DNA of 64,000 nucleotides from a virus. The notes beneath the pieces are model-generated. The model did no database searches and was not told where the DNA came from. It saw only the letters and a list, made by a program, of their open reading frames with translations. Both the position numbers and the translations under genes were made by a program. Below are positions 19,157-61,655 of this stretch, piece by piece. Within the stretch, counting starts at the first letter, position 1; each line of letters opens with the position of its first letter. Location of the stretch: the IMG/VR virus record IMGVR_UViG_3300023174_002543, positions 187,664-251,663 of that record, one strand, 5' to 3'.

Positions 19157-19159
19157 ACT

Positions 19160-20698: not shown

Positions 20699-20708
20699 GT
20701 ATATGACA

Positions 20709-22677: not shown

Positions 22678-22783
22678 TTTTTTCTCCTTTAAAAAGCAAG
22701 ATGTTTATATAGACCTGACTATCAGCGTCCATATGTATTTATATATTTTACATTGTTGCGTAAAATATTTGTATATTATTGGG

Positions 22784-47237: not shown

Positions 47238-47266
47238 AGTGTAGCATAGTTGTGATTATTTGTCAA
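47238..47266 (-). promoter_or_regulatory. Promoter TTGACA-N17-TACACT upstream of uvdE
   Basis: Read directly. Confidence 0.45.
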
Positions 47267-48086
47267 TCTTTAATAAATCCTTAATATCATAAAGATGTTT
47301 CATGTACTCACTAACATTTCCCAACACACTAACTGCAATATCACCTTCTCTACGAGGTCCATACTTAACGTCAATGGTAAGGTTGTTAACTGTTTCAAAT
47401 ATACTAACCATTTCTTTAACGGTATAACCTACACCATGACCCAAACATTCAATATTATTGCTAGGTGTTTCTATGGCAGTACGCAATGCATCGCATATTT
47501 CATTCACGTGTACATAATCACGTACACAAGTACCATCCCAACTTTCATTGTAGTTTTTCCCAAAGATAGTAAATTCACCAGTGTCTTTTGCCTTGAATAA
47601 ATTGTACATTAATCCATCAGGGTTAGTAGGTGCAAATCCATCACTACCAATTACATTGTAAAATCTAAAGATAGTATATGGTATGTTTCTGTATTCACAC
47701 ATTTCTTTAATACAATCTTCAGCCGCTTTCTTACTTGTACCGTATGCGCTTTCGCATTTTTCGGCTGCACCTGTACTAGCAAAAATAAAATTATCTGTAT
47801 CTACCCAAGTTAATAGATTCAATGAACCAATCATATTAGTCAAATAATAATCAGTGGGTGTCCTTTGACTTTCACCTACATTGACTAATGCGGCTAGATG
47901 TATAACTGCATCAAAATGTTCTTTCTTTAATGTAAACTGGTTTTTGATATTTCTATTAAAGTGTCTACTAACTTTATATTGAGGATCTTTGATATCTAAT
48001 CCCACAATCTCATACTCACCATCTAACATCTTACAAAGATGTGATCCTATGTAACCACTGTTACCTGTTATTAATATTTTTTTCAT
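47256..48086 (-). CDS. NAD-dependent epimerase/dehydratase (short-chain Rossmann; ILITGNSGYIGSHL)
   Basis: GxxGxxG N-terminus, YxxxK implied. Confidence 0.6.
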   Translation of the reverse strand: MKKILITGNSGYIGSHLCKMLDGEYEIVGLDIKDPQYKVSRHFNRNIKNQFTLKKEHFDAVIHLAALVNVGESQRTPTDYYLTNMIGSLNLLTWVDTDNFIFASTGAAEKCESAYGTSKKAAEDCIKEMCEYRNIPYTIFRFYNVIGSDGFAPTNPDGLMYNLFKAKDTGEFTIFGKNYNESWDGTCVRDYVHVNEICDALRTAIETPSNNIECLGHGVGYTVKEMVSIFETVNNLTIDVKYGPRREGDIAVSVLGNVSEYMKHLYDIKDLLKIDK

Positions 48087-49435
48087 ACTAGTTCAAATAA
48101 TCCTAATCCTGTTACTTCCTCTAATGGTTCATAGCTAGGATCCTTGGTTAGATAAGTTTCCTTGTCTGTATAGATTATACGATACTTGTGTTTATTTGTC
48201 AATACACTACGAATGTCATCAATGCAAATTAAACTACGACCCAAATCTTTAATGTAATCACTATGTTTGACCGTAGTGTTCTCTAATATTTTGGCTGTGT
48301 TACTGTTTGATTGCTTTGGCTTAAACTCATTGAAACATTCATTCCATTTATGAAATACATCTGATTCTAAATTTTGTGTATCTCGCAATGCATTTTTGTC
48401 ATACCAAGATTTAGCAGTTGGGTAAGCGTGATATGCATCCTTAACATCTTCTGCCATTTGTTTTTTATTAGTTACAAAGAAGAATCTACCTTTAAAATTA
48501 TTAGTCCAACGTTGATTCTCTAAACAGAACGTGGGTAGTTGTGTAATCTGTTCATAGAAAGCCATACCATAACTCTCAACAATACTAGGATTGAATGCAA
48601 CTCTTGCACTTGTAATGAAATCTACTTTTTCTTGACCAATAATACCTACTTTTATTTCATAAGGTACACCAATCTTCTTTAATCGTTCTTCAAATTTCTT
48701 AGCACCATTTGCGCTAGTCATTACCTTAGCGGGTAGTTTAGTTTGTTCAATCAGTTCTAAGAATAGTTCAGGGTTTTTGCCTTCTTCCCAACGACCAACA
48801 AACAATATACCCTCACGTGGCTTGTGATGTTCTTCTAGCAATCCTTGTTCTGTAATTGGAATAGGTAAATGATAAGATGATTCATCTAGGTTAAGCCAAT
48901 TGTATTTGCTTTGTGTACCAACATATACACCGGGAGTACTAAGTTGTTGACGCATCAACACATTGGTATTATATAAGAAAGGATTCTTTGTATCCTTAAA
49001 GATTTGACTTTCTAAATGAGTATATGCAATAACTTGAATACAATCTTCAAGTCCCATTGTAATAGCAACCTGCACTGTTTCGTATGTGTTACAAATGAAT
49101 GCATCATATAAATTATGTTCTAATGCTTCTACAATACTATTTCGGAAGTTAGCCATACGTTCATAGTTGAATGTATCACCATACATAAAGATATTACTAT
49201 GTGTTGTATAGGCTAATGACACTTTAGGATATATAATATTTGCCTTCAATGATTTAACAAACTCATTGTCTTTGGGTTCTTTATCAGTGATTATATCAAC
49301 TTTAATGTTATGGCTATCCATCAATTCGCAAAAACTCTTTGCAAATTGCCCTATACCACCATGAGGTATAAGAGTTTGATAACTTACTAAGAAGCCAATT
49401 CTTTTATCATATGTTCTCATTGTTTTAATTTCCAA
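48083..49435 (-). CDS. GT-B fold glycosyltransferase-like protein (ILFVGRWEEGKNPELFLELIE)
   Basis: GT4-like C-domain motif. Confidence 0.45.
   Translation of the reverse strand: MEIKTMRTYDKRIGFLVSYQTLIPHGGIGQFAKSFCELMDSHNIKVDIITDKEPKDNEFVKSLKANIIYPKVSLAYTTHSNIFMYGDTFNYERMANFRNSIVEALEHNLYDAFICNTYETVQVAITMGLEDCIQVIAYTHLESQIFKDTKNPFLYNTNVLMRQQLSTPGVYVGTQSKYNWLNLDESSYHLPIPITEQGLLEEHHKPREGILFVGRWEEGKNPELFLELIEQTKLPAKVMTSANGAKKFEERLKKIGVPYEIKVGIIGQEKVDFITSARVAFNPSIVESYGMAFYEQITQLPTFCLENQRWTNNFKGRFFFVTNKKQMAEDVKDAYHAYPTAKSWYDKNALRDTQNLESDVFHKWNECFNEFKPKQSNSNTAKILENTTVKHSDYIKDLGRSLICIDDIRSVLTNKHKYRIIYTDKETYLTKDPSYEPLEEVTGLGLFELV
48174..48202 (-). promoter_or_regulatory. Consensus promoter TTGACA-N17-TATAAT located inside the 3' end of the glycosyltransferase gene, ~88 nt upstream of the epimerase ATG
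   Basis: Read directly. Confidence 0.5.
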
Positions 49436-49650
49436 ATAATATGTTCATGTTTATCATGCCATTTACATTCAAAGACAGTGGCACCAGGTCCAGTATATAA
49501 TGCAGTAAGTTTATAACCAAACTCTAACCATATAGGTTTATCTGATATGTTACACTTTACTGGAAACCAAGCAAATTTTAACTCTGTACCTACTAATTTA
49601 TTATAAAACATTTCGTCTAGTGTCGTTGGTCTATACCCCGTGCCCATCAT
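49417..49650 (-). CDS. Hypothetical small protein
   Basis: ORF. Confidence 0.3.
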   Translation of the reverse strand: MMGTGYRPTTLDEMFYNKLVGTELKFAWFPVKCNISDKPIWLEFGYKLTALYTGPGATVFECKWHDKHEHIIWKLKQ

Positions 49651-49961
49651 TTTTTACCACCAGTGACCCATTTAGTGTATGCTTCCACAAATAGTTTTTC
49701 ACGTTCAGGATTATTAAGTTGTTTTACGTGTTCAACGAATCTAGGTACACCTCGATCGGCTGAGATTATCTCTAACAATCCTACATCAAGTTCAGTCAAT
49801 GCAATTTTATTAGTAATATCAATAAACTTACCACTTGAATCTTTTTCCTGAGCAACCACTACATCAAGTTCAACCGTAACACCGTGAATCGTGCCTCTAC
49901 CGGTGAGTGGCACTTTCATTACTGCACCCATGTCATTGTCTAAAATGCGTGTACTAATCAT
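49647..49961 (-). CDS. Hypothetical protein
   Basis: ORF. Confidence 0.3.
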   Translation of the reverse strand: MISTRILDNDMGAVMKVPLTGRGTIHGVTVELDVVVAQEKDSSGKFIDITNKIALTELDVGLLEIISADRGVPRFVEHVKQLNNPEREKLFVEAYTKWVTGGKK

Positions 49962-49975
49962 TTAATATTTTCTTG

Positions 49976-50608
49976 TTATTCATTCATTCTCCATTTGTTC
50001 TCTGGTAATCCATAGTCCCACTTTGAATCCATTTCAACATTCCATCTAGTAGTAGCAACATTGAAATCTGGTATCTTCATTTCTTTAGGGTTAGATGCCG
50101 GTTCTAAAATAACAATACGATTATTTGGTTGTGCAGCAAACTGTCCATTATCGCACTTGATAAAGTTAAAGGACTTATGATCCTCAACGTCTTCACTGTG
50201 TCCACAATCAAGAGTATTAAAATCGGGATGTGAGGAATCAACAGTAAAAAGATATTCACCCTCTAACCATGAACCATCTTTCATTTTAATTTTACATCTC
50301 ATATTTGCTATCATTGCTTTTTTAATTACAGTGATATCATAAGACATGCTGTTCCATAATTGTAAAAAATCTAAAGGATACGGATCACCTTCTATAGGTT
50401 TCCAGCAGTAAGCATGTAATGGAAGTTTATCATATAACGCACCATAGTGATTTAAGTACGATTCAATTCTAAATGCTTGGCTACGTTGAGACTTTATTGA
50501 TATCCACCAACATGGTTCAAGTTCCCCTTGACCCTTCTCAAAATCATACAAAAATTCTCTGCGAATAAAACATTTTACTGGTGGCAAGTTTGCTACTAAA
50601 AAACTCAT
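49976..50608 (-). CDS. Hypothetical protein
   Basis: ORF. Confidence 0.35.
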   Translation of the reverse strand: MSFLVANLPPVKCFIRREFLYDFEKGQGELEPCWWISIKSQRSQAFRIESYLNHYGALYDKLPLHAYCWKPIEGDPYPLDFLQLWNSMSYDITVIKKAMIANMRCKIKMKDGSWLEGEYLFTVDSSHPDFNTLDCGHSEDVEDHKSFNFIKCDNGQFAAQPNNRIVILEPASNPKEMKIPDFNVATTRWNVEMDSKWDYGLPENKWRMNE

Positions 50609-50609
50609 T

Positions 50610-51260
50610 TTAATATTTTCCTGATGCCAATACTATTTTACAAATATGTTCTAATCGTTCAATGTGTTCATAGGCACGCCATGGACTTGTGTCAATAGCA
50701 ACTACTCCATGTCCTTTGATACCTACAATGTCATATGCGATGTTTCCATAGTCATCTAATTCTAATCTATAGTGACACTGGTCAGCAAGTTCTTGGCTAA
50801 TTGGTTTCACATCTCCTACATTGGGCGCTACCTTTGTATAACGATTAAGTTCTGGAAAACTATCACTAATTGTACTTAAATCAATACCGGCATGCATCGC
50901 AGCAATACAATATGTAGGATGAACGTGTACGACTACCCGCACATCGTCTGTATGTTGTCCCATTTCTTTTTGCAATCCAAAGTGTAAGGGGAGTTCTCCG
51001 CTGGGCTTTAAGTTAGCACTTATATCGGTATAAAATTCTTCCTGCCAAGATTTTGTTAAGAAAGGCGGGGAGGCACTGATATTATCAACTAATTTAATTT
51101 TCTTAAATTGATCGGGCTGTAATGTTTGCTTACGTACACCACTCGGGGTGATGTAGAAATGGTCACGGTCATGATGCCGAATACTCACATTGCCGTCACG
51201 ACTTGTAATCCAATTACGCTTGTAGGCGTCTTCTAATACTTCACATATTGTTTCTAACAT
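50610..51260 (-). CDS. Class II aldolase/adducin-domain protein (GNVSIR...FYITPSG; HVHPTY)
   Basis: Class II aldolase N-terminal motifs. Confidence 0.5.
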   Translation of the reverse strand: MLETICEVLEDAYKRNWITSRDGNVSIRHHDRDHFYITPSGVRKQTLQPDQFKKIKLVDNISASPPFLTKSWQEEFYTDISANLKPSGELPLHFGLQKEMGQHTDDVRVVVHVHPTYCIAAMHAGIDLSTISDSFPELNRYTKVAPNVGDVKPISQELADQCHYRLELDDYGNIAYDIVGIKGHGVVAIDTSPWRAYEHIERLEHICKIVLASGKY

Positions 51261-51436
51261 ATTTTAGGTTCCCCATTTTACGTTGAGCCATACTCGTTCA
51301 TGTATGTAATGTAATACAGTTAACACTATATTAGCCCATATTGCCCCACTCCACCCTGCCCAAATTGCAGTTACGCATGTAGCTATTATACGCCATACTA
51401 TGGCTCTTACTATTGTTCTTTTGTGTGTTTCTGACA

Positions 51437-52294
51437 TTAAGTTCCCCACTCGTTTTTGAATAGTGGCACTTGTAATCTATCACTGTACCGCCAGCCTTTT
51501 TGCATTGCCATTTCTGCCACTGCACGATTGTTAAGGGAATACACCCGCTCAACACCACCGACAGGCATAAGATACACGCTACCTTTAAAACCATTTTTAC
51601 GGTACTCATTTACTGCTCTTTCTGCATCTTTTACATCATGTTCAGTAGCAACTACCAATTTTAAATAAGTATGACCAACATCTTGGTATTGACACACAAC
51701 ATCTGGTTTGATAGCATCACTCCAACTTTCACCACTGCAAGGTAGTTTAGCACTTACACTAAATGTTAATGCATTGTATCCTCGTTCTTTATTGCCTAGA
51801 GTCCAGTTCAATAAATAGTGTCTGAAATCAGGTGTAAGAAGTTGTGTACCGTTTGTTTCAAAGGTCAATTCTTTGAGTGATTTCATCTTATCATTTTGTA
51901 ATAAATCTATAAATGATTTTTGCCATCCGAGAAGAGGTTCACCGCCTGTAATAACTAGATGTTCATCTATCCAACGCTCATGAGGGAGCATATCCATAAT
52001 TCCATCTACGATAGCATCAGTAGAGATAACAGCACTAAGATGTTTAAACCTAGGATCCCAACTAGCATAACTATCGCAACCAGTACTGACTAAAGGTAAT
52101 TCCTTATAATTATTATATAAGTGTACTACTTGTGCAATTTCTTCTGCCTCAGCACTTAACATACCACCGGGCATACCAAATCCCGCACATTTAAAATTAC
52201 AACCGAATGTACGAAGGAATACGCTAGGCACACCCATGTATCTACCTTCACCTTGTATACTATAAAACAACTCTGCGATTTTAATTTTGCTCAT
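51437..52294 (-). CDS. queE: 7-carboxy-7-deazaguanine synthase QueE-like radical SAM protein ([33 protein letters not shown]); cluster motif is CxxxCxxF, third Cys absent
   Basis: N-terminal QueE signature; verified codon by codon. Confidence 0.6.
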
Positions 52295-52475
52295 TTTTAA
52301 TCCATAGTTCTAATGCTTTTGCCGGATAAATCTGAACAGAGCCTTTTTCAGTATCGCTTTCAACTGCATAGCCTTCAGGTGTCAATTCAGTTGAATATGT
52401 ACCAACAACAACAACACCGTGCCATTGTGACCCGGAAACTTTTTTTACTAAATCACCTAATTTAAATTTACTCAT
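52281..52475 (-). CDS. Hypothetical small protein
   Basis: ORF. Confidence 0.3.
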
Positions 52476-52692
52476 CTTGTTCCAACCAATTTGTTACTTG
52501 ATCCTCTGCATCTACTTGGCTGGATGCATATACGGTAAATGTTGCAACACCATTGCGGCATCTAACATTGAACGGGACAGTACCATTAGGTAACCATCCG
52601 GTTTCTACTTCACGTTTTACTTCATAGAATTGCATGTCACTAGATTTAATTCTACCGAATAATTCATCGGCTATTTGTTTTGCTGTTTTCAT
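52468..52692 (-). CDS. Hypothetical small protein
   Basis: ORF. Confidence 0.3.
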
Positions 52693-52701
52693 TATTGATC
52701 C

Positions 52702-52862
52702 TTACCAATGTCTTATCACACCTGCTATGATAAAAAAGTTTGTTATTACATATATTAACACAATACAGGTGCGGATGCAAGCAATACGGTCAGCTTCCTG
52801 ATCTGTATCACCTGACTTCTCTCCTAAACTTTTAGCCCAAAGTCTCCACATTTTTTTCATTT
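52702..52862 (-). CDS. Small (53 aa) membrane protein, not in ORF track
   Basis: Manual translation MKKMWRLWAKSLGEKSGDTDQEADRIACIRTCIVLIYVITNFFIIAGVIRHW. Confidence 0.25.
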
Positions 52863-53050
52863 TTTACCTGTGGATAATAATATGTACAATCACTACGGCG
52901 TATGTCCCAACTGCTGCCTAGACCACCTAGGTGTTGTAGGGCCCATCTAGCACGGTCATGTGCTTGTGGCACTGCCATTGGCCAGGGCGTATTGTTGCGG
53001 CACTGAATGTACTGCTTTAGATAAACATAACTTTGTTCACGTGCCCACAT
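52832..53050 (-). CDS. Hypothetical small protein (overlaps by ATGTGGGCACGTGA with a 41-aa ORF 53050..53173)
   Basis: ORF. Confidence 0.25.
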   Translation of the reverse strand: MWAREQSYVYLKQYIQCRNNTPWPMAVPQAHDRARWALQHLGGLGSSWDIRRSDCTYYYPQVKNEKNVETLG

Positions 53051-53176
53051 GTCTGCCCCTAATTTTACGCCACACTATTTCAAATGTGTCAGGCCTGATA
53101 AACACTTCCCATCCTTTGGGAATATGCTCAGGAAAAAGACTTGCCTTACCGTTACTGTGTTTATACAGTTTCATTC

Positions 53177-53626
53177 TTAACCTTCGTAAATAGCACTATT
53201 AGCACCGTGTTCTGCACATTCTACTTTAACGCAATAGCAACGGTTATTGGTATTAGCTCTAATTAAATTGTCAGCAAATGTGAAAGCATGTTGGGCAAAC
53301 TTCTCTGCACCAACACCATCAAAAATTCTAATCTCTGCTAGATCCAATGCTTCTAGTTCTTTAAATTTAGATAGATGTGGATCTGATTTATCCAGTGCCA
53401 GCTTATGGTCGAAATGGTCTTCTAGCCATGCCTTAAGCATTTTAAGTCCACCGAAGTCTACTGCCCAATTTTTATCATCTAGTGTGTCACATCCAAATGT
53501 AAATGTAAAGGCTAGACTGTAACCATGTAGTAAATGACAATGACTGTGGTCTGCATTGGGTTGTCTAAATACAGCACTTAGTCCAATGTTGTGTCCGTAA
53601 TGTTTTGTTGAATAATATTTTGCCAT
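53177..53626 (-). CDS. queD: 6-carboxy-5,6,7,8-tetrahydropterin synthase QueD (HCHLLHGY motif)
   Basis: CxxxHGH-type PTPS motif. Confidence 0.7.
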   Translation of the reverse strand: MAKYYSTKHYGHNIGLSAVFRQPNADHSHCHLLHGYSLAFTFTFGCDTLDDKNWAVDFGGLKMLKAWLEDHFDHKLALDKSDPHLSKFKELEALDLAEIRIFDGVGAEKFAQHAFTFADNLIRANTNNRCYCVKVECAEHGANSAIYEG

Positions 53627-53702
53627 GTTAATTCTCCTATGTTAATTATAGCATAGGACGCAGAATTTGTATACCGGGATGAGCCCATAAGGCCGGTTAT
53701 CT

Positions 53703-54170
53703 TTATTTACCTTTTTTGGCTTCTGCCTGATAAACACGTTTACGTAAACTTGTACTACTGAAACTATGGTCACGCCCATTAAATACAATTTCAATGCCAC
53801 GCTGAAAACATGCTTGATCTCCAGTAAATTGTTTACCTTCATATTCAATACCTAGTATACGAACATTAAGAGGTAATATCAATAACAAGTCAACCAAGTC
53901 TTGTTCAGTTTGATATACAACTACCTCATCAACATAGCGGCATGCACTTAGTTGAATTTGTCGTTCTACAATGCTTTGAATAGGTTTGTTCTTTGTATCA
54001 GGTCTATCAAGTGTTGGATCAGTTTGTAATCCCGCAATCAAATAATCACAATGATTTTTTGCCTCACTAAGCATTGCAATATGACCTGCATGTAACATAT
54101 CAAAAGTACTAAAGGTAATTCCAATTCGTTTACCATCTTTGTTAAGTTTTTTAATTTTATTGAATATCAT
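53703..54170 (-). CDS. Cytidylyltransferase-family nucleotidyltransferase (TagD / HldE-domain-II-like; FSTFDMLHAGHIAML, RYVDEV)
   Basis: (H/T)xGH motif and RYVDEV identical to TagD. Confidence 0.6.
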   Translation of the reverse strand: MIFNKIKKLNKDGKRIGITFSTFDMLHAGHIAMLSEAKNHCDYLIAGLQTDPTLDRPDTKNKPIQSIVERQIQLSACRYVDEVVVYQTEQDLVDLLLILPLNVRILGIEYEGKQFTGDQACFQRGIEIVFNGRDHSFSSTSLRKRVYQAEAKKGK

Positions 54171-54433
54171 TCTAACTCCGTAATTTCTTCTACTATTGGA
54201 TCCGGTTCACCTTCTTCACTAAACCCATATGTAACTTCATATTCTCTACCTATATAATGAAATGTTTCAGTAAAGGTTCTTTGGTTGTTACTAGAATCTG
54301 TTGGACCAATCAATGCTAAAACTAATAGCATGTGTTCACGTTCAGTCCCCAGTAAAGTTCTGCGTTTTTTCATGCCTATACTTTTTAAAAATTCAAGTGC
54401 TTCCTCTTGATTTCTGAAGGGTGAACGATTCAT
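54167..54433 (-). CDS. Hypothetical small protein
   Basis: ORF. Confidence 0.3.
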   Translation of the reverse strand: MNRSPFRNQEEALEFLKSIGMKKRRTLLGTEREHMLLVLALIGPTDSSNNQRTFTETFHYIGREYEVTYGFSEEGEPDPIVEEITELE

Positions 54434-54666
54434 CTTTTTAATATCTCAATTATCTTTTCTTGTTCTTTTAGTTTGAGCCATTCTTCTTCTGGTGCAAATG
54501 TACTACATTTTCTTAATGATTCATCAATCAACCATTTAAGTTCGTATAGTTCTTGTTTAACACCCCAAGACACAAATCCATCATTACGTGGATTTGTGCA
54601 TTCATAACGCATGGCCCATATGCCATGTTTAATAGCATTTAAGTCCCAGTCTTTACGAAAGCCCAT
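54430..54666 (-). CDS. Hypothetical small protein
   Basis: ORF. Confidence 0.3.
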   Translation of the reverse strand: MGFRKDWDLNAIKHGIWAMRYECTNPRNDGFVSWGVKQELYELKWLIDESLRKCSTFAPEEEWLKLKEQEKIIEILKR

Positions 54667-54896
54667 TATTCAACTCCCATACGGTCTTTAATGTAATCAC
54701 TTATCCTACTAGAATGACTACGAATTTCTTTATCATTGAGAGATTGTATATTATTGTTAAAGGTTAATGCATGTTTGGCACATTCCTGAACAATCAACTC
54801 GGCGAACTTAGACATAAAGGCAGTTTGTTCTTCCCAACTATCGCCAAAGTTTGATTTGGCCGCCTCAGACCAAAGTTGTTTAACTCGTTCGTTCAC
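54666..54896 (-). CDS. Hypothetical small protein
   Basis: ORF. Confidence 0.3.
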   Translation of the reverse strand: MNERVKQLWSEAAKSNFGDSWEEQTAFMSKFAELIVQECAKHALTFNNNIQSLNDKEIRSHSSRISDYIKDRMGVE

Positions 54897-55576
54897 TTAC
54901 AACCTTGTCGGGCAATTTGATAGAATTCAGCACGTGCAGCTGAATCAGTTTTGAACCCGCCACCTAATCGTGTAGTTACTGTTGAACTACCTGTATCCTC
55001 AACACCACGTGACTTTACACAATAATGTTGGGCGTCAATCATAACTGCGACATCCTCTGTCTCTAAGATGAACTGTAAGGTGTGAAATACTTGTTCAGTT
55101 AGCCGTTCCTGTATTTGTGGACGCTTGCTGAAATATTCTACAATCCTGTTAATCTTACTAAGCCCTAAGACTTTATCTTTAGGGACATAAGCTACTGTCG
55201 CTAATCCATCTATGACCACAAAGTGATGTTCACAGTTAGATTGAACACTTACGTTACGCTCACATACCATTTCGTTGTACTTCATCTTATTATCGACTGT
55301 TGTACATTTTGGAAATGCCTCGTAATCTAAACCCCAGAAAATCTCATTCACATACATCTTAGCTACTCGCTTTGGTGTATCAATCAGACTATCATCAGTT
55401 AGGTCTAAACCTAATACTTCCATGATGCCTTGAAAATGACTTTCAATTAACTCAATCTTACCCTTACGATCCATATGACCTGTATAAGTAGTTGGTGTTT
55501 CAACTCCCATCTTAACTAGATGTTCGTGTACTTTTAATCCTAATTCAGGATCCGTTTTTGTTTTATTATAACTCAT
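54893..55576 (-). CDS. folE: GTP cyclohydrolase I FolE (CEHHFVVIDG)
   Basis: CEHH zinc motif and overall colinearity. Confidence 0.8.
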   Translation of the reverse strand: MSYNKTKTDPELGLKVHEHLVKMGVETPTTYTGHMDRKGKIELIESHFQGIMEVLGLDLTDDSLIDTPKRVAKMYVNEIFWGLDYEAFPKCTTVDNKMKYNEMVCERNVSVQSNCEHHFVVIDGLATVAYVPKDKVLGLSKINRIVEYFSKRPQIQERLTEQVFHTLQFILETEDVAVMIDAQHYCVKSRGVEDTGSSTVTTRLGGGFKTDSAARAEFYQIARQGCK

Positions 55577-55635
55577 AGATAACCTTCCTTTGTGATGGTT
55601 TTGTTTTGATATTTTGTAACCGTTGTGTTACATAC

Positions 55636-56190
55636 TTATTTATCTGTTTCTTCAATACTATTAAAAATATTCGCATTTGATGATGGACCAAACGGCCATG
55701 CAGCATTTGGATTTAACGGGGGACGTTCTTTTAATTCGATATTCTCTTTGATTATTGTTCCGTAATCATCTGTATAATCAATTTGAAATGGTGCAGCAAT
55801 CATAACATATTCGTCTTCAAATTGCCAATCGTGATTACCTTCATGTAACCAGGCAGCACCACCTCGTTCGTATTCATCATCTTCATCACCATCAAAGTAA
55901 CAAGTCTTGATACGTTCTTGTTCTTCTTCAGTGATATCATCACTAAATTCCCAATCAACATTAATGCTATCATCAAATTCAGTGCCCCAGCCTATGTCAG
56001 TTTTGCAATAAGCAAGATTAGTATCTTTATATGGAAGGTCAGTTTCTTCTTCAACAAACCCTTGTCCCCAACGATAAAGTTCTTCCATATTAAACCAGCT
56101 AGTAGTACCATCTGGATTTTCACGATACATTTCTACTCGCCAATAGACGCTTTTCTTTTCTAACGGTTTAATACAATAAACATTACCCAT
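55636..56190 (-). CDS. Acidic protein with C-terminal NAAWPFGP motif (paralog of 57368..57940)
   Basis: Shared WPFGP motif. Confidence 0.35.
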   Translation of the reverse strand: MGNVYCIKPLEKKSVYWRVEMYRENPDGTTSWFNMEELYRWGQGFVEEETDLPYKDTNLAYCKTDIGWGTEFDDSINVDWEFSDDITEEEQERIKTCYFDGDEDDEYERGGAAWLHEGNHDWQFEDEYVMIAAPFQIDYTDDYGTIIKENIELKERPPLNPNAAWPFGPSSNANIFNSIEETDK

Positions 56191-56191
56191 G

Positions 56192-56968
56192 TTATTTCCT
56201 TATACGATTGTTGGCATTTTCAACTGCTTCTAGTATACCAATGCTATTATCAGTTCGTTGCAATAAATCAATTATAGCACGAACATCTTTAGGAAAGCAA
56301 GCACCACCGTACCCTAAACTTCCATCTGGTCCAGGTACATCTAAATGGCTATCACCCATTCTAGTATCTGTTTTCAACATACCTGTAAAGTGTTCCCAAT
56401 TTCCACCTAGACTATCAACTAATATCTTATATTGATTCATCATAATAACCTTGTTAGCTAGGAAGGTATTCATAAAATACTTTACTAAACTAGCAGTTAT
56501 CAAATCAGTAAACAAAATAGGTCCTGTAGTATTGATAGCACTTTGCGCTAACATATCTAATAAAAATAAATTGTCACCAGTGCCACCTATAAAGATGAAT
56601 TTTGGATTAAGATAATCATGTATGGCGGTTTTTGCTACAAGAAATTCTGGTATGTGCCATAGATTTTCAACACCCTCATACTGTTTCCAGAATACAGGGT
56701 CAGTTGTACTTTTTACAACAATATGTCCTTTATACGATGCTAATTTATTTAGGGTAGTTCTTACTATAGAAGTATCACAACTACCGTCGGGATTACTTGG
56801 TGTAGGTACACATACAAAAATTACATGCGGCTCACTATCAAGTAATTCTTGTATTGATACTGAACCACTAATAATCGGATCGTGAAATAATACAGTATTG
56901 TCAGTGCCTAACCAGCTAGCCTGTACTGCTTTACCCACATATCCTAAACCAACAATACCCACTCGCAT
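56192..56968 (-). CDS. UDP-glucose/GDP-mannose 6-dehydrogenase-like, N-terminal NAD and central catalytic domains only (MRVGIVGLGYVG; GGACFPKD); UDP-binding C-domain absent
   Basis: Motifs seen; length 258 aa vs ~390-450 for full UGDH. Confidence 0.5.
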   Translation of the reverse strand: MRVGIVGLGYVGKAVQASWLGTDNTVLFHDPIISGSVSIQELLDSEPHVIFVCVPTPSNPDGSCDTSIVRTTLNKLASYKGHIVVKSTTDPVFWKQYEGVENLWHIPEFLVAKTAIHDYLNPKFIFIGGTGDNLFLLDMLAQSAINTTGPILFTDLITASLVKYFMNTFLANKVIMMNQYKILVDSLGGNWEHFTGMLKTDTRMGDSHLDVPGPDGSLGYGGACFPKDVRAIIDLLQRTDNSIGILEAVENANNRIRK

Positions 56969-56970
56969 TA

Positions 56971-57159
56971 TTAGGCCTTAGCTTCTTTACGTGCGGCTTT
57001 CTCAGCAGTAATTTCATTACGGCGTGCTTTGATTGCTTTAGCCATTTCTGCTAATGCTTTGCGGGCACGTGTGCCTGCTGCCGCGTTACCTTTTTCAAAT
57101 TTTTCATGTTCTGCTAGGTAGGCTTCTAGTTGTGTGTTAATATCATTATGTGCGCTCAT
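56971..57159 (-). CDS. Small basic helical protein
   Basis: ORF. Confidence 0.3.
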   Translation of the reverse strand: MSAHNDINTQLEAYLAEHEKFEKGNAAAGTRARKALAEMAKAIKARRNEITAEKAARKEAKA

Positions 57160-57368
57160 AGTTTCTCCTTTGATTTACGCTTTGGTTTTGCCTCAGTAAT
57201 TGTTACCGATGCAATTGCTTCTCTTACTTCTTTTAATAGTTGTTCATCATCCCAAACAAGTTCAGTTGAACCATCCTCAAAAGTTTTTACAGTCAAATGC
57301 GTACCTTGATTAATCAAGGGCCAGCCACCTGATGGTACGTTTTCTGTTTTCTTTTTACGTGTTGCCAT
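57156..57368 (-). CDS. Hypothetical small protein
   Basis: ORF. Confidence 0.3.
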   Translation of the reverse strand: MATRKKKTENVPSGGWPLINQGTHLTVKTFEDGSTELVWDDEQLLKEVREAIASVTITEAKPKRKSKEKL

Positions 57369-57940
57369 TAATCTTCCTCTTTAGGACCTTCTTTTGGTCT
57401 ATCAAAGGGCCATTTGACTGTTTCAATAGTAGACGCAAGTTCGGGTCCAAACGGCCACTGAGTGGGTTTTTCTAGCATTGCTCTTGCCTCAGCCTCAGAA
57501 GTTATAACCTCTAGTTGATTGTTAATTTCTTCTTCAGTCTGACCTGTGTGTATGATTTGCTCAGTATCACCATCAACACGTTCAATGATTAAATCACAAT
57601 CAATAATCATTTCGGTATCACCTTGTGACCAATCATGTTCCTCTAAATCGTAATATGAATTTTCTTCTAAGAATTCTTCGAGCCATTCTTCTAGGTCTTC
57701 ATCATCAACAGTGACTTCTTCCCAGCAACCATCATTAGTTTCTACTAACTCAGTTTCATAATCACAATTATAGATATCCACACCTGCTTCAATATCAGGG
57801 GGATTATCATCATCTGTATAAACAATAAATTCTCCCCAACGCCAGCCCGTTTCTGCTGTGATAGTTGCACCATCTTTGTGATAGTAATTACGTTCAATAA
57901 TTGATTTTTTCCACTGGGGTTTTACGCTCCATTCAGCCAT
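57368..57940 (-). CDS. Strongly acidic protein with C-terminal TQWPFGP...WPFDRP motif
   Basis: ORF. Confidence 0.35.
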   Translation of the reverse strand: MAEWSVKPQWKKSIIERNYYHKDGATITAETGWRWGEFIVYTDDDNPPDIEAGVDIYNCDYETELVETNDGCWEEVTVDDEDLEEWLEEFLEENSYYDLEEHDWSQGDTEMIIDCDLIIERVDGDTEQIIHTGQTEEEINNQLEVITSEAEARAMLEKPTQWPFGPELASTIETVKWPFDRPKEGPKEED

Positions 57941-57941
57941 T

Positions 57942-59135
57942 TTAGTATTTTCCTTCTCTAGTATGTTTACGATAATCTGTACTCATTCTAAGCATTGTAT
58001 CACCTTTGCCTTCAAGTACGTCAATGATTCGGTCAATCGTGCCGTCGTTGTAGTCACTAATCTTACCTATATGTTCACTCGGTTTCGCTAATAACTTTTC
58101 TAATTTGTCTAGTGCATCTTCTATTGACCAAGGAACATATAATCTGGAATAATCATTGGCAAAAGTTTCAGGAAAACTCCGGTAAGCAGGATAAAGAACA
58201 TTACAACCCAAAGCATCTGCTTCCGAGACAGTATTACTGACCCAATCTTGTAACGCACAATTAAATACAACACGACTATCATTAACAATATTGTAATAAT
58301 CATTTTTATCTAAATCCTCATTTAACGTTAATAGCCCTTTTGATTGTAAATCATGTGTTCGTTGCATGTAACTAAGATTGTTGCTTTTTAGTTTTGCACC
58401 ACTACATACACAAAATTCTACATATGTATTTGGATGGCGCACGTTCCATGCTTCAATGAGGTCCATATAAAAGTCTGGTTGTTTCTCTTGGTCCCATCTT
58501 GCACTAAACACAACACGATGTTTGCGTTCATTGAATGGTTTGATAGAACTAACCCGAGACCTCACCTCTTCTTTACCGAATGCAAGACCTGATATATTAT
58601 AGATTGGGGCTTCCCAGCCTGCAATCTTCATGTGCATTACCATTTCTTCATTCGTAGCGAGTACACCATCGACAAAGCTATCCACCATCTTTTCATAATG
58701 CCCCATAAATTTAGACATATTCCATACGTGAACAAAATCATCAGGATCAATGGATTGAGCAAGACAGCGAACAAAAATCCTAGGACGATTAATGCTGTCG
58801 ATTTGATTAAGTATATAAGGAAGGCTCTCGATACCGGGTTGAAACATGTCCTCAAAGTAGATAACATCTTCATTATTAAGTTCTCCTGCTTTCATCATAC
58901 GAATCAAATTCATTAGTTGCGACATACCGAAATATGTGCGACCATGTGCATCTAATACTTGCCCAGTAACAATCGCTTGGTCGTTACTTAGTGTTTCACC
59001 GGGGACAATGACATAATCAATGCCCCGTTTCTCAAAGACAACACGATTCCACTCTTGTAATTGTAGAGTGTACCTTGCTTTATAAGGCTCTAGCCCCATA
59101 TAGTAAAATTTACGCATGTCTACGTGCGTCCTCAT
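57942..59135 (-). CDS. GT-B glycosyltransferase-like protein (RVVFSARWDQEKQPDFYMDLIE; SEADALGCNVLYP)
   Basis: GT4-like motifs. Confidence 0.4.
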   Translation of the reverse strand: MRTHVDMRKFYYMGLEPYKARYTLQLQEWNRVVFEKRGIDYVIVPGETLSNDQAIVTGQVLDAHGRTYFGMSQLMNLIRMMKAGELNNEDVIYFEDMFQPGIESLPYILNQIDSINRPRIFVRCLAQSIDPDDFVHVWNMSKFMGHYEKMVDSFVDGVLATNEEMVMHMKIAGWEAPIYNISGLAFGKEEVRSRVSSIKPFNERKHRVVFSARWDQEKQPDFYMDLIEAWNVRHPNTYVEFCVCSGAKLKSNNLSYMQRTHDLQSKGLLTLNEDLDKNDYYNIVNDSRVVFNCALQDWVSNTVSEADALGCNVLYPAYRSFPETFANDYSRLYVPWSIEDALDKLEKLLAKPSEHIGKISDYNDGTIDRIIDVLEGKGDTMLRMSTDYRKHTREGKY

Positions 59136-59322
59136 CCCAACTGTTCTTTGCTGGCTTTCCAGTCATATACTTGTTGAATTGCCTAAATACATAACTACGC
59201 ATATCGTACAATGTTGCCTCATCATACTTATAACCATAATCTACGCAAAATTCTAAATACTTTTCTAAATCTTCAAAAATTTGACGAACTCTGTGGTTAG
59301 GTTGAAATGATTGTTTTGCCAT
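59110..59322 (-). CDS. Hypothetical small protein
   Basis: ORF. Confidence 0.3.
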   Translation of the reverse strand: MAKQSFQPNHRVRQIFEDLEKYLEFCVDYGYKYDEATLYDMRSYVFRQFNKYMTGKPAKNSWDEDARRHA

Positions 59323-59337
59323 TTGTTTTTTTCTCTC

Positions 59338-59934
59338 TTAGATTACAATACTATTGTATGGTTTTGTTGTGTTATAATAAATCGTAGCACCGTTTTCACC
59401 GTCTTCTGAAACAGTAATTTCAATGTCACGATCAGGGTACCGTGTTGCGATAGTTTGATATAAATCATCACTTATCATTTCACAGCTTTTGTTATTCAAT
59501 TCAAGTATGCCTTTACCGAATAAATTTTCGATCCAGCGTTTGAATTGAATGAACTCAATGTCACGATTATTGTGGAACACTTGAATGCCCACAGTAAAGT
59601 GAAATATATGACGATGCGGCATTCCTAAGAAACTCACATCATATTCGTCTCCCGTCTTTAGTGCGGGGTCATGATTGGCATCATAATATGCATGAATGCC
59701 TTCACGGCGTAGTGTAACCCATATCATACGCTTTGCCGCATCACTGATACGTGTGCGTTGTTCTGCTAAAGCCATTTGTCGTGGGTCAAATACTTCTTCT
59801 ACTACTGTAGATTCTTGTACTACTTCTGTTACTTTAGTCTTTTTTGGTCTTGCCATTTTAAAATGTCCTATTAAGTGTGGCCCATGTGAGCCATTGATGA
59901 AAGGTTTTGTAAACTGATTCTGCTTCACGTTCAT
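59338..59934 (-). CDS. Hypothetical protein
   Basis: ORF. Confidence 0.35.
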   Translation of the reverse strand: MNVKQNQFTKPFINGSHGPHLIGHFKMARPKKTKVTEVVQESTVVEEVFDPRQMALAEQRTRISDAAKRMIWVTLRREGIHAYYDANHDPALKTGDEYDVSFLGMPHRHIFHFTVGIQVFHNNRDIEFIQFKRWIENLFGKGILELNNKSCEMISDDLYQTIATRYPDRDIEITVSEDGENGATIYYNTTKPYNSIVI

Positions 59935-60094
59935 CTTGCGGCACTTTTACACCACGAACATAAAAGCCTTCTTGTGTAATTTTTAGCATTTCGTCAGACG
60001 CATCATTAGCATAAAATGTTACTGTGTTTTTTGTTTCCATGTATGTAGCACCTTTATTATCTGTGATCCAAGTTAAAATTTGATTAGACTTCAT
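59858..60094 (-). CDS. Hypothetical small protein
   Basis: ORF. Confidence 0.25.
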   Translation of the reverse strand: MKSNQILTWITDNKGATYMETKNTVTFYANDASDEMLKITQEGFYVRGVKVPQDEREAESVYKTFHQWLTWATLNRTF

Positions 60095-61655
60095 TTAAGA
60101 TTTTTTCCATCTCATCATCACTATCTTCTATCACTTCTTCAAATTCAACTTCTTCTGTATTTGCTTTTACTTCTTCAAACAATCCTGATTCTATGATAGA
60201 AATTGTATTAGTAGTTTTCTTACCACTCATACCTTGACTACCGCTTTTAAATTGTTCCCATAACTTTTCATGTTTTTCAATTAAAGCAATTGATTCATCT
60301 TTAGTTTTACACGCAAATACTTGGTCAATGATATCTTTGAAAAGAATCTTTTCAAAACGCTGACTCATTAACATACTTGGAATTACACCTTGTTCATACT
60401 TACGATTAGCCTCTTGTACAGCATTCATGTGCATCCAAACATTATGACTTTGAATCAATGTATAACTCAATGTATCCCAACTTGTTTTAGTTTCTTTACC
60501 ATGCTGACCTAAGAAACCTTGACCACGATAACACATATCCTTAAGTACTAGTTTATCAGTTATTGGACTATCTGTAAAGACTTTATGGATACCTTCAGCC
60601 ACAACTGCATCACTATATTTGCGAGTGTCATTTGCATACGACTTTTTCTCCGCAGTCTTTTCCATACTATATGACCACTTCTTGTTGTGTTCAATACTAG
60701 TATTAAAATATGCTAAGCCTTTTGCCGCGCCAAAGAATGGGCTTGCACAATCAAATGTAATTTTGAGATTTGAGTTATGATATTTGCGTATTGCTTTTTG
60801 AATATCAGTAAATAATACCGCATACTCCATAATACTTGTACCCAAACAATGAATCAAATCGTGTTTTCCTGGTTGTAGTAAACCATCATGAATTATACCA
60901 ACCATGCGTTTAAGCATTAACTCAACATCAATCTTATTCTGTCCACCAAATGCCCAACCGTTAAAGTGATTGTCTGGATAGATATTTGGGTCACAATACT
61001 TTTTCATTTCTTCATACCAACTATCACTTTGTGTATGAGTACGACCTTGCAATACGTTTAAGAACTTACAACTACCATTGCGATTCTTAATGAAGTATTC
61101 ATTATTGATATGTGTTGCTTTAATAGCATCTTCAATAGTTTTAATACCATGCGCTGATGTTTTAGTCTTTGGGTCTTGAATATGATAAGTTGTCAATGAC
61201 TGTGAAGGAATATCTAAACACATACCGTAGTTCATGTATGTATCCATCCATGTCAATACTTGTTGACGTTTCTTCATAGCACGGGGACAGTTAGGATCTT
61301 TCCAATCAGCGGGCCATTGTGCTTTAAGAATTTGGAAACCACCTGAATCACCTAACATAAATGTGTTAGGGTCACGTTTACGAATAATTGATTCGTTATT
61401 GTCATCCTTAGTTACATCTAAGTTTGCATGACCTGCACTATACAAGCCCCACTTATAATAGTAAAGACCTTTTTGTGCGTTTAAAAAGTTAAGACATTCA
61501 ACATCACCATTGAACTGTGCAGGGATACGTGCAGCATCAAAATAGTTCTCGCCTTCACGTTGTTTACCTAAGCCAGCAATATAAAAACTACTAATAGCAG
61601 GCAAGAATGTTGCCCACTCATCATTATGTTTTTGTGATAAATTGTCTTGTTCCAT
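60084..61655 (-). CDS. dpdA: DpdA-like DNA-guanine transglycosylase (TGT superfamily: FMLGDSGGFQ; KITFDCASP nucleophile region; no CxCxxC..H zinc site; ~100-aa acidic C-terminal extension)
   Basis: TGT catalytic motifs without zinc subdomain. Confidence 0.6.
   Translation of the reverse strand: MEQDNLSQKHNDEWATFLPAISSFYIAGLGKQREGENYFDAARIPAQFNGDVECLNFLNAQKGLYYYKWGLYSAGHANLDVTKDDNNESIIRKRDPNTFMLGDSGGFQILKAQWPADWKDPNCPRAMKKRQQVLTWMDTYMNYGMCLDIPSQSLTTYHIQDPKTKTSAHGIKTIEDAIKATHINNEYFIKNRNGSCKFLNVLQGRTHTQSDSWYEEMKKYCDPNIYPDNHFNGWAFGGQNKIDVELMLKRMVGIIHDGLLQPGKHDLIHCLGTSIMEYAVLFTDIQKAIRKYHNSNLKITFDCASPFFGAAKGLAYFNTSIEHNKKWSYSMEKTAEKKSYANDTRKYSDAVVAEGIHKVFTDSPITDKLVLKDMCYRGQGFLGQHGKETKTSWDTLSYTLIQSHNVWMHMNAVQEANRKYEQGVIPSMLMSQRFEKILFKDIIDQVFACKTKDESIALIEKHEKLWEQFKSGSQGMSGKKTTNTISIIESGLFEEVKANTEEVEFEEVIEDSDDEMEKILNEV

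Follow-up and report, generated by a model that had tools for sequence, protein, structure and literature searches.

A DpdL-type 7-deazaguanine DNA-modification module with a closely associated glycosyltransferase in an abundant clade of uncultured jumbo phages

The dDG system of phage phiST combines FolE, QueD, QueE and DpdL without QueC, and its DNA has been shown to contain 100% dDG (Cui et al. 2023, PMC10516641). The locus described here, which lies in a 64-kb stretch of a viral genome of roughly 350 kb (the window), has the same gene set, and shares with phiST the C..LHGY variant of QueD, the LxxxHRHxF signature of DpdL and a DNA-polymerase neighbourhood. It differs in its DpdA, a 523-aa protein of another subfamily than the DpdA3 of phiST (hhalign only 54%, over a partial region), and in having two glycosyltransferases, GT-397 and GT-450, together with an epimerase and a cytidylyltransferase, all four of which phiST lacks. 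The base in phiST is known chemically, whereas that of the window clade is predicted from its genes. DpdL is a proposed decarboxylase of 7-carboxy-7-deazaguanine (CDG), and the pair of ACP17 dpdA and dpdL, given to E. coli without further genes, yielded no dDG, a result from which its authors suspected a requirement for additional enzymes.

In the Pseudomonas jumbo phage PA5oct (Wroclawvirus), whose DNA is resistant to G-site restriction enzymes, the order PolB, structural protein, DpdA, GT-397, DpdL and, further on, QueE is as in the window. The two DpdA proteins share 34.6% identity; the PA5oct cluster has an extra phosphoribosyltransferase, and the 25 kb examined contain no GT-450, epimerase or cytidylyltransferase, which the window has. 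The DpdA of the bacterial Dpd system (PDB 7UI4) is a preQ0 insertase with only 15% identity to the window DpdA, for which the predicted substrate is 7-deazaguanine (DG) and which, unlike the bacterial enzyme, is extended at the C-terminus by a long helical region and lacks a CxCxxC motif. The window DpdA gave no match in Pfam or PADLOC, and no DpdB or DpdC was identified.

A similar logic, in which a non-canonical base is decorated by phage GT-B enzymes using nucleotide sugars, operates in the glucosyl-hydroxymethylcytosine of T-even phages, and in T2 and T6 a second glycosyltransferase extends the glycan, as GT-450 could do here. The T-even base is, however, a pyrimidine made before replication and offering a hydroxymethyl acceptor, whereas the window would specify an analogue of a purine on which no acceptor group is evident, and the glycosyltransferase families differ. 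Glycosylation of 7-deazapurines is itself known, from the small molecule huimycin (HuiG) and from mannosyl- and galactosyl-queuosine in tRNA (QTMAN and QTGAL), showing that they can be used as acceptors. HuiG acts on the exocyclic amine of the free base, and QTMAN and QTGAL act on the cyclopentenediol that queuosine carries in tRNA; neither acceptor is in DNA, and the likeness drawn here is a chemical one.

We conclude that positions 47256-61655 hold a DpdL-type 7-deazaguanine DNA-modification module from an abundant uncultured jumbo-phage clade, with a probability of about 0.9 for deazaguanine DNA modification. Every listed ORF was confirmed at its coordinates on the minus strand:

47256..48086, minus: GalE-like NAD-dependent sugar epimerase (Pfam 2e-31; GalE 1e-45, below cut-off)
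48083..49435, minus: GT-450, second GT4-like glycosyltransferase (weak Pfam GT1 match; motifs)
49976..50608, minus: phrog_3704 gene, known from cyanophages under the erroneous labels 'PurM' or ferredoxin (PHROG 6e-76)
50610..51260, minus: class II aldolase/MtnB-like (Pfam 2e-27)
51437..52294, minus: QueE, CDG synthase, radical SAM (PHROG QueE-like 8e-50; several NCBIfam QueE models)
53177..53626, minus: QueD, CPH4 synthase, C..LHGY variant (PTPS 5e-13; PHROG QueD-like 4e-40)
53703..54170, minus: small nucleotidyltransferase, RfaE domain II/TagD-like (Pfam CTP_transf_like 2e-11; HAGH motif intact)
54893..55576, minus: FolE, GTP cyclohydrolase I (Pfam 1e-60; PHROG 5e-75)
56192..56968, minus: truncated UDP-sugar dehydrogenase-like ORF (N-terminal and central domains only)
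57942..59135, minus: GT-397, GT-B (GT4-like) glycosyltransferase (orthologues, family profile, Foldseek)
59110..59322, minus: small ORF of 70 aa, conserved, separating DpdL from GT-397
59338..59934, minus: DpdL homologue, a paralogue of QueD with a proposed role in CDG decarboxylation (signature and phmmer)
60084..61655, minus: DpdA-family DNA-guanine transglycosylase, putative, 523 aa, zinc-less, 'window-type' (motifs, hhalign, AF2)

The order PolB, DpdA, DpdL, GT-397, FolE, cytidylyltransferase, QueD, QueE, GT-450, epimerase is kept in 28 long relatives. An earlier note on this DNA, made from the letters alone, had assigned FolE, QueD, QueE and DpdA and placed the module downstream of the replication genes; the assignments hold (by Pfam and PHROG, and for DpdA by motifs and structure), and the position downstream of PolB is correct. 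FolE was found in 80/80 relatives, QueD in 62/70 and QueE in 61/62. The C..LHGY motif is common to the QueD proteins of phiST, ACP17 and BUCT, and the Cx3Cx~36C pattern of QueE is conserved across four lineages. The protein encoded at 60084-61655 gave no match in Pfam, PHROG or PDB sequences and, as the note had said, contains no CxCxxC zinc motif. Its membership of the DpdA family is confirmed by the invariant DSGG motif and D302, by hhalign to the ACP17-type DpdA (97.4%) and by a good AF2 model whose best structural matches are DpdA and TGTs; transglycosylase activity would follow from this kinship.

No QueC, QueF, Gat or YhhQ was found among all window ORFs of at least 50 aa, and no SGGxDS motif in any of the six frames, which bears out the reported lack of QueC within the window; the window is 64 kb of roughly 350 kb, so QueC could be encoded elsewhere. 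The CDG-type base predicted from that lack was not supported. The ORF at 59338-59934, missing from the first gene list, is a DpdL homologue whose LGMPHRHIF is an exact fit to the published LxxxHRHxF signature, with phmmer matches to PA5oct (2e-42), ACP17 ASD50405 (7e-38) and phiST CGPG_00067 (6e-13). It can be aligned with five other DpdL proteins and was found in 58/63 clade relatives. Since it lies between DpdA and GT-397, the set FolE, QueD, QueE, DpdL and DpdA fits the published dDG arrangement without QueC, and the exact signature leads to a predicted base of dDG, not CDG. We therefore regard DG as the probable inserted base, the decarboxylase role of DpdL being a published proposal. That status leaves some room for a dCDG product, possibly esterified or conjugated further, with a DpdL homologue that is not a decarboxylase, as do the lack of QueC within the window, the low level of dCDG naturally present in STSV-2 and the ability of DpdA2 to insert CDG. 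Against it stand the good conservation of DpdL, its exact signature and its place between DpdA and the glycosyltransferase, and the fact that the sole chemically characterised phage lineage with DpdL has dDG and no dCDG; we consider dCDG very unlikely.

Three classes can be told apart among the sugar genes: GT-397; GT-450 with the epimerase and the cytidylyltransferase; and sporadic passengers. Both window glycosyltransferases are themselves under the Pfam thresholds, which their orthologues exceed. The call of a GT-B-like gene at 57942-59135 proved sound: GT-397 orthologues exceed the Pfam GT1 threshold, and the family profile matches solved group-1 glycosyltransferases in the PDB (7EC7 at 5e-5). 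All Foldseek matches of the GT-397 model, which is poor (pLDDT 57.6), are GT-B. Four residues that bind the nucleotide sugar, R213, E217, K218 and E305, do not vary; in the window clade the E-x7-E motif begins with Asp in place of Glu, and GT-397 proteins are mildly acidic (pI 5.5-6.2). GT-397 was found in 58/65 clade relatives, and orthologues adjoin DpdA or DpdL in BUCT-ZZ01 (3e-177), ACP17, X1, PA5oct, Phosso and BCSR5.

Among 50,697 phage records, 6/6 tblastn matches of GT-397 were DpdL-positive; a more central query retrieved 23 phage records, 18 of them DpdL-positive, and in the remaining 5 the glycosyltransferase adjoins Gat-QueC and a GlcNAc deacetylase. The 42 viral loci, independently sampled contigs picked by glycosyltransferase homology alone, all have DpdL (median gap about 240 bp), with window-type DpdA in 41/42, FolE in 41/42, QueE in 39/42 and QueC in 0/42. 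A search of 185,579 species genomes gave three bacterial loci, in all of which the glycosyltransferase adjoins a window-type DpdA; one of them lies in an island flanked by an integrase and carrying a GmrSD enzyme. GT-397 is thus next to deazaguanine or DpdA genes in 23/23 phage records, 42/42 viral contigs and 3/3 bacterial loci, counts that are partly non-independent, as clade B is mostly one lineage and the module may travel as a unit. The association persists through rearrangement: GT-397 lies before or after DpdA depending on lineage, co-occurs with two distinct DpdA types, and in Phosso has remained beside DpdL although some 170 kb separate them from DpdA. It is quite probable that GT-397 functionally belongs to the deazaguanine pathway.

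The suggestion that sugars elaborate the base thus gains strong comparative support for GT-397. Support is moderate for the epimerase, the cytidylyltransferase and GT-450, which are clade-conserved, the first two from families generic in phages. GT-450 has the motifs GRWEEGKNP and ESYGMAFYE (E-x7-E) and occurs in 53/53 clade relatives, its start usually 180-600 bp past QueE; it recurs in X1/BUDD and in BUCT-ZZ01 (UTS52035, 39% identity, between FolE and DpdA), and none was found in clade B loci. The epimerase, whose proposed identity is upheld, has GxxGxxG and YxxxK motifs, has a 4-base overlap with GT-450 at the stop codon of the latter and was found in 52/52 clade relatives. The cytidylyltransferase, likewise correctly named, matches NCBIfam rfaE_dom_II (7e-22) and g3p cytidylyltransferase (3e-16), each below its own cut-off, and was found in 53/71 clade relatives; in clade B, homologues of 55-65% identity adjoin DpdA in 14/42 loci, and an SDR epimerase also recurs beside DpdA.

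No support for elaboration extends to the aldolase, the phrog_3704 gene or the truncated dehydrogenase, which are clearly accessory passengers outside the module core. Only for these three does the earlier note's alternative of co-residence in a hyperplastic region hold. The aldolase, correctly identified, occurs in 6/59 relatives, always with phrog_3704 and at variable position; phrog_3704, also in 6/59, is present in 114 cyanophage and pelagiphage records. The dehydrogenase-like ORF, truncated as described, retains the catalytic GGACFPKD, lacks the C-terminal domain and was found in 0/74 relatives; it is probably a lineage-specific remnant.

GTP is converted to CDG by the established FolE, QueD and QueE route, to which the three window genes are assigned by homology. 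Following the published proposal and the phiST chemistry, DpdL would then remove the carboxyl group to give 7-deazaguanine, which the large zinc-less DpdA-family enzyme is predicted to exchange for guanine in DNA after replication. GT-397 would act in the same pathway, most likely placing a sugar on deazaguanine in DNA, as its gene association suggests; GT-450 may lengthen the glycan, for which activated donors may come from the GalE-like epimerase and the small nucleotidyltransferase. The exclusivity of GT-397 hints at a previously undescribed sugar-bearing purine in DNA, and a glycosylated final base is plausible from this association, at somewhat less than even odds. 7-Deazaguanine has neither a hydroxyl nor an amine at C7, which leaves C7/C8 (giving a C-glycoside), N2 and O6 as possible acceptors, for none of which we know of a precedent in DNA; GT4-like enzymes are typically O-glycosyltransferases. 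The poor GT-397 model, the mild acidity of the GT-397 proteins and the Asp in their E-x7-E motif in the window clade also weigh against a glycosylated base.

This shortage of an obvious acceptor would suit a plain, unglycosylated dDG, with the glycosyltransferases, epimerase and cytidylyltransferase as co-resident LPS, capsule or virion glycosylation genes. So would the 100% dDG of phiST, which has no such glycosyltransferase, the presence of clear passengers, and the wide spread of the cytidylyltransferase (122 records) and GalE-like (147 records) families, which frequently serve as auxiliary genes in phages, cyanophages among them, that show no connection to deazaguanine. We nevertheless judge it unlikely, as GT-397 never occurs away from deazaguanine or DpdA genes, keeps this adjacency through several rearrangements, and does so across Pseudomonas, Synechococcus, Sinorhizobium, Xanthomonas and Burkholderia hosts with differing envelopes. 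It is similarly improbable that GT-397 serves the pathway without decorating DNA, by acting on the free base or nucleotide (huimycin-type, salvage or activation) or a protein, or as a mostly structural partner of DpdA. The invariant binding residues point to catalysis, PA5oct DNA is itself G-modified, and a DNA target would suit the bacterial DpdA-glycosyltransferase pair, which shares its defence-type island with a nuclease dependent on modification. That the glycosyltransferases decorate another base, such as 5-hydroxymethyl-cytosine or -uracil in T-even style, and only share a DNA-modification island is highly improbable: such genes do often cluster, and the structure search with the GT-397 model lists the alpha-glucosyltransferase of phage T4 at rank 27, but neither the window nor any fetched locus has a hydroxymethylase, compact modules and bacterial DpdA-glycosyltransferase pairs come without pyrimidine-modifying genes, and the PA5oct restriction data point to G.

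The DpdL homologue has either an N-terminal extension of about 70 aa or an internal true start, the ENA product being 172 aa. The 70-aa ORF beside it is found in 47/65 relatives, at a constant position.

Every ORF that the earlier note had named in the block at 47256-61655 was found on the minus strand with its coordinates unchanged. FolE matched its Pfam family at 1e-60, QueD matched PTPS at 5e-13 and its PHROG at 4e-40, and QueE matched its PHROG at 8e-50 as well as several NCBIfam QueE models; the GalE-like epimerase and the class II aldolase gave family matches of 2e-31 and 2e-27. The cytidylyltransferase is an RfaE-II/TagD-like nucleotidyltransferase (Pfam 2e-11; NCBIfam 7e-22), the nucleotide-sugar dehydrogenase ORF has N-terminal and central domains only, and the window copies of the two glycosyltransferases, GT-397 and GT-450, fall under Pfam thresholds. 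The window, which also codes for DnaK, ClpX, ClpP, DNA ligase and UvdE and whose edge cuts PolB, comes from a jumbo phage; megablast of the block against annotated phages returned no close relative.

Metagenomes contain the clade to which the window belongs in great abundance: homologues number in the thousands and contigs reach 483 kb, and one contig of about 370 kb carries a GT-397 identical to that of the window. We fetched 80 related loci by FolE and scored each gene of the block across them.

Genes of the block and their presence in the 80 related loci (loci with the gene/loci covering that position).
60084-61655, minus strand: DpdA-like gene; 45/54, core
59338-59934, minus strand: DpdL; 58/63, core
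57942-59135, minus strand: glycosyltransferase GT-397; 58/65, core
56192-56968, minus strand: truncated dehydrogenase; 0/74, sporadic
54893-55576, minus strand: FolE; 80/80, core
53703-54170, minus strand: cytidylyltransferase (CT); 53/71, core
53177-53626, minus strand: QueD; 62/70, core
51437-52294, minus strand: QueE; 61/62, core
50610-51260, minus strand: aldolase; 6/59, sporadic
49976-50608, minus strand: phrog_3704 gene; 6/59, sporadic
48083-49435, minus strand: glycosyltransferase GT-450; 53/53, core
47256-48086, minus strand: epimerase (Epim); 52/52, core

The gene order is conserved as PolB-st240-h129-DpdA-DpdL-h70b-GT397-Hc1-FolE-CT-QueD-QueE-h77-GT450-Epim, in which h70b is the ORF at 59110-59322, and the distance from QueE to the start of GT-450 is mostly 180-600 bp. 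Three genes that had been counted in the module, namely the aldolase, the phrog_3704 gene and the truncated dehydrogenase, are sporadic and drop out of it. The first two were rejected as pathway members on their presence in 6/59 relatives and because phrog_3704, mis-annotated as 'PurM', is a common cyanophage and pelagiphage gene. They form a two-gene cassette (window 49976-51260), co-present in those six relatives, which lies after QueE in the window and before QueE in other loci.

FolE, QueD and QueE convert GTP to 7-carboxy-7-deazaguanine (CDG), and DpdA enzymes swap G in DNA for a deazaguanine. The earlier note had predicted a CDG-type base, and had overlooked the ORF at 59338-59934 (phrog_17812, annotated as of unknown function), which contains LGMPHRHIF. 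This is the LxxxHRHxF signature that replaces the CxxxHGH of QueD and defines DpdL, a QueD paralogue whose proposed role is to remove the carboxyl group of CDG, giving 7-deazaguanine (DG) (Cui et al. 2023, PMC10516641). The window protein, which we aligned alongside QueDs and a further five DpdL proteins, matched phiST CGPG_00067 (6e-13), ACP17 (7e-38) and PA5oct (2e-42) in phmmer searches, and tblastn agreed on the homology. QueC, QueF, an amidotransferase and YhhQ were missing from the window ORFs of at least 50 aa and the SGGxDS motif from all six frames of the 64-kb window, which upholds the earlier observation that the window has no QueC. DpdL thus sits with FolE, QueD, QueE and DpdA, and QueC is absent both from the window and from all 42 clade-B loci, a set fetched by GT-397 homology. 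FolE, QueD, QueE, DpdL and DpdA in a set without QueC make up the published arrangement for dDG, the deoxynucleoside of DG, which replaces all G of phiST. Because a DpdL homologue is present and the set matches that arrangement, the predicted base is DG and not CDG, and we infer that DpdL makes it. The window QueD reads C..LHGY instead of CxxxHGH; this was ruled out as a defect, the motif of phiST QueD being identical. Among the DpdL proteins themselves, that of PA5oct (gp0318; locus L001, 14763-15140) has HFH where all others read HRH, and that of Vibrio phage Bakedbeans forms the C-terminal portion of an ORF of 383 aa (gp176; locus L093, 8221-9372), which suggests a fusion to an extra N-terminal domain.

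The DpdA-like protein had no match in Pfam-A, PHROGs v4, NCBIfam, PADLOC-DB or PDB sequences, an HMM built from 58 of its homologues retrieved nothing from PDB or Pfam, and the Pfam TGT profile (PF01702) matched neither the window protein nor any of the 58 family members. The silence of PADLOC is uninformative here, since the validated DpdA1 of phage 9g was missed too; PADLOC was likewise null for a bacterial DpdB/DpdC-type Dpd system among the scanned proteins, though the same miss applies. Detection succeeded solely by profile-profile and structure comparison. Profiles of the window protein and of the ACP17, X1 and BUCT-ZZ01 DpdA aligned with 97.4% probability (E 1.3e-11) and all motifs in register, including the ACP17-type DSGGLQ and SYDSTT. 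Both D103 (GDSGGFQ) and D302 (FDCASPF) are invariant among the 58 diverse homologues, as are D148 and H269/G272. An AlphaFold2 model calculated from a two-clade alignment (pLDDT 86.8, pTM 0.87) has the TIM-barrel fold of the TGT type, and Foldseek gave two significant matches only, both to TGTs. With invariant aspartate motifs, this profile match and a good model, the motif-based DpdA call proved right, and the CxCxxC motif is indeed lacking from this 'zinc-less' TGT-family protein. A canonical tRNA-guanine transglycosylase was excluded by the lack of both a PF01702 match and a CxCxxC...H zinc site. Identity with DpdA3 (phiST CGPG_00065) was also rejected, hhalign giving 54% over 82 columns only for a window protein twice as long, and so was DpdA1 (9g gp03; hhalign 0.5%), with the DSSS motif as the sole aligned part. 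On these comparisons we treat the protein as a putative separate and large 'window-type' DpdA subfamily, a family of 797 clusters at 50% identity. Its members adjoin deazaguanine genes in the window clade, PA5oct, clade B and Vibrio phage 2.275.O, in the last beside QueF, QueC, an amidotransferase and FolE. Those of PA5oct, Phosso and Vibrio phage 2.275.O are deposited as 'hypothetical protein', and the subfamily would go unlabelled in annotation that relies on the four profile collections searched (Pfam-A, PHROGs v4, NCBIfam and PADLOC-DB), none of which matches it.

GT-397 is predicted to be a GT-B, GT4-like enzyme of two-Rossmann fold with a Glycos_transf_1 C-terminal domain. The window copy lies under the Pfam Glycos_transf_1 threshold, which its orthologues X1_306 (45.5 bits) and BUCT_032 exceed, and the family profile matched solved group-1 glycosyltransferases in the PDB (7EC7 at 5e-5). 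Of the nucleotide-sugar-binding positions, R213, E217, K218 and E305 do not vary; the E-x7-E motif opens with Asp in the window clade, where the other lineages have Glu. The AlphaFold2 model was poor (pLDDT 57.6) owing to a shallow alignment, a joined PA5oct gp0316+gp0317 query having yielded DpdA homologues only. Searched with this model, Foldseek returned 287 matches, of which the best 50 all have the GT-B fold and are mostly glycosyltransferases, among them OtsA, MshA, LmbT, PimA, BshA and, at rank 27, T4 alpha-glucosyltransferase.

The genomic company of GT-397 was then examined across phages. With the window protein as query, 6 of 50,697 phage records matched and all six were DpdL-positive: BUCT-ZZ01 (64% identity), ACP17 twice, X1, BUDD and BCSR5. 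Profile and phmmer searches added PA5oct gp0317 and a Phosso 'glycosyltransferase', each directly adjoining DpdA or DpdL. The ACP17 orthologue as query found 23 records, 18 of them DpdL-positive; the other five are PhiXhv-type Xanthomonas and Erwinia phages, and in PhiXhv-15, the one examined of these, the glycosyltransferase adjoins a genuine fusion of Gat with QueC (Pfam QueC 4e-49). A strict tie between GT-397 and DpdL was rejected, because the PhiXhv-type enzymes pair with Gat-QueC and those of bacteria with DpdA alone. The PhiXhv-15 cluster (locus L177, 2406-10833) encodes a GNAT protein, Gat-QueC, a PIG-L GlcNAc de-N-acetylase, the GT-397-family glycosyltransferase and a GFO/IDH/MocA oxidoreductase, a gene content that suggests a GlcNAc-to-GlcN type decoration tied to an archaeosine- or ADG-type base. 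DpdL phages lacking the glycosyltransferase include RHph_I1_18, Ahp1 and Bakedbeans as well as phiST and D479, in both of which the DpdA is the small DpdA3; plain dDG has been demonstrated in DNA of the phiST lineage.

As an independent test we picked 80 viral contigs purely by homology to the glycosyltransferase (at least 584 exist) and scored the 42 loci of at least 14 kb. DpdL was present in 42/42, at a median gap of about 240 bp and a maximum of 2.5 kb, window-type DpdA and FolE in 41/42 each, QueE in 39/42, a phosphoribosyltransferase (PRT) in 25/42 and QueC in none, the commonest order being CT-Epim-DpdA-DpdL-GT397-PRT-FolE-QueE. The set is mostly one further clade, clade B, with singletons of GC 0.31-0.59, so that the 42 loci add lineages and do not amount to 42 independent events. 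A scan of 185,579 bacterial and archaeal species genomes, with a three-sequence alignment as query, found the glycosyltransferase in three loci only, each adjoining a window-type DpdA. In Ochrobactrum sp. MYb379 (locus L180, 638-10825) the pair lies in an integrase-flanked island beside a GmrSD type IV, modification-dependent nuclease; two large proteins of 853 and 411 aa are encoded there as well. The association of GT-397 with deazaguanine genes withstands rearrangement: among lineages the glycosyltransferase lies before or after DpdA and pairs with two different DpdA types, and in Phosso it remains beside DpdL with DpdA about 170 kb off. A phosphoribosyltransferase (Pfam 2e-11) joins the DpdA/GT-397/DpdL trio in PA5oct (gp0321; locus L001, 15946-16380) and BUCT-ZZ01 (locus L087, 8081-8542); the window has none. 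Possible roles are salvage of the guanine that DpdA releases and synthesis of a deazaguanine nucleotide.

The idea that the block elaborates its base with a sugar is well founded for GT-397, given this exclusive association, and plausible for three further genes; it fails for the three passengers. GT-450 has clear GT4 motifs, and its best phage relative lies between FolE and DpdA in BUCT-ZZ01; its absence from clade B marks it as a lineage-restricted addition. Motifs are intact in both the nucleotidyltransferase and the epimerase, whose families elsewhere are generic phage auxiliary genes. In clade B a nucleotidyltransferase 55-65% identical to the window copy is next to DpdA, as is an SDR epimerase that, at only 24-31% identity, is possibly not orthologous.

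Taken with the predicted base, the most likely reading, to which we give a rough probability of 0.45, is that GT-397 glycosylates deazaguanine in DNA. DpdL would make DG, the window DpdA, with its computed fold and motifs, is predicted to insert it into DNA, and GT-397 would act in the same pathway. More tentatively still, GT-397, alone or with GT-450, may attach a sugar directly to DG already placed in DNA by DpdA. As DG has no C7 substituent, this would need either a C-glycoside at the electron-rich pyrrole carbon that DpdL decarboxylation would unmask or an N-glycoside on the 2-amino group; the small-molecule enzyme HuiG is a precedent for N2-glycosides, and the sugars of tRNA queuosine are a conceptual precedent only. 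GT-450 may add a second residue, with the epimerase and the nucleotidyltransferase possibly supplying donors. That QueE, DpdA and DpdL are all encoded speaks against synthesis of a pterin glycoside, which would use FolE, the PTPS-family protein and a glycosyltransferase. A chemically attractive scheme would have the nucleotidyltransferase activate CDG and the SDR protein reduce it to a hydroxymethyl acceptor; its backing consists of weak PanC and thioester-reductase matches, and we set it aside. T4-type DNA glucosyltransferases act on a hydroxymethyl-pyrimidine that a phage hydroxymethylase makes; among the genes assigned in the window and related loci, none for such a hydroxymethylase was noticed. 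For glycosylation of DG in DNA, PA5oct is informative: it carries the trio and its DNA resists restriction enzymes that cut at G-containing sites, which indirectly backs base exchange on DNA by DpdA. Cui et al. (PMC10516641) had ACP17 dpdA among the genes they expressed, and ACP17 DpdA and DpdL alone gave no dDG in E. coli.

In at least eight lineages of phages, and also in islands of bacteria, GT-397-family genes are confined to neighbourhoods of DpdA, DpdL or Gat-QueC, a distribution indicative of a layer of purine hypermodification not recognised before. To our knowledge, eight 7-deazaguanine DNA modifications are known, none of which bears a sugar, and the glycosylated DNA bases known to us are all pyrimidines. 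A full-text literature search found neither a glycosylated deazaguanine in DNA nor a link between DpdA or DpdL and a glycosyltransferase, though the supplements of Cui et al. may tabulate some of the genes. If the reading is true, this would be the first purine analogue bearing a sugar to be known from any genome, and in PA5oct-like phages a sugar-bearing deazaguanine would account for the 'modified G'; it would be common among aquatic jumbo phages and would also occur in a few bacterial defence islands. The finding bears on the identity of that modified G in PA5oct and on the failure of ACP17 DpdA and DpdL to make dDG. It would touch restriction, CRISPR, END-nuclease and glycosylase defences, and would matter for therapy with PA5oct-like phages and for the sequencing and cloning of such DNA.

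Several smaller ORFs lie within the block. Those at 55636-56190 and 57368-57940 are very acidic (pI about 4.05-4.08, 24-28% Asp+Glu), have a common short C-terminal motif containing WPFGP and occur in 7/78 and 21/71 relatives, respectively; DNA mimicry or an anti-defence role is conceivable for them. Between GT-397 and FolE, 56971-57159 encodes a 62-aa basic protein (pI 9.7) of Pfam family Hc1, histone H1-like, present in 52/74 relatives, and a 64-aa ORF just upstream of QueE (52281-52475; 9/64 relatives) has a precomputed Pfam match to DHFR_2, the R67-type dihydrofolate reductase. Upstream of the module, 15997-24192 holds a ClpP, DnaK/Hsp70 (6.5e-257) and ClpX-like AAA+ set, an unusual phage cargo. 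The NUMOD3 homing-endonuclease ORF at 43750-44667 is in none of the related loci and is thus probably a recent mobile insertion.
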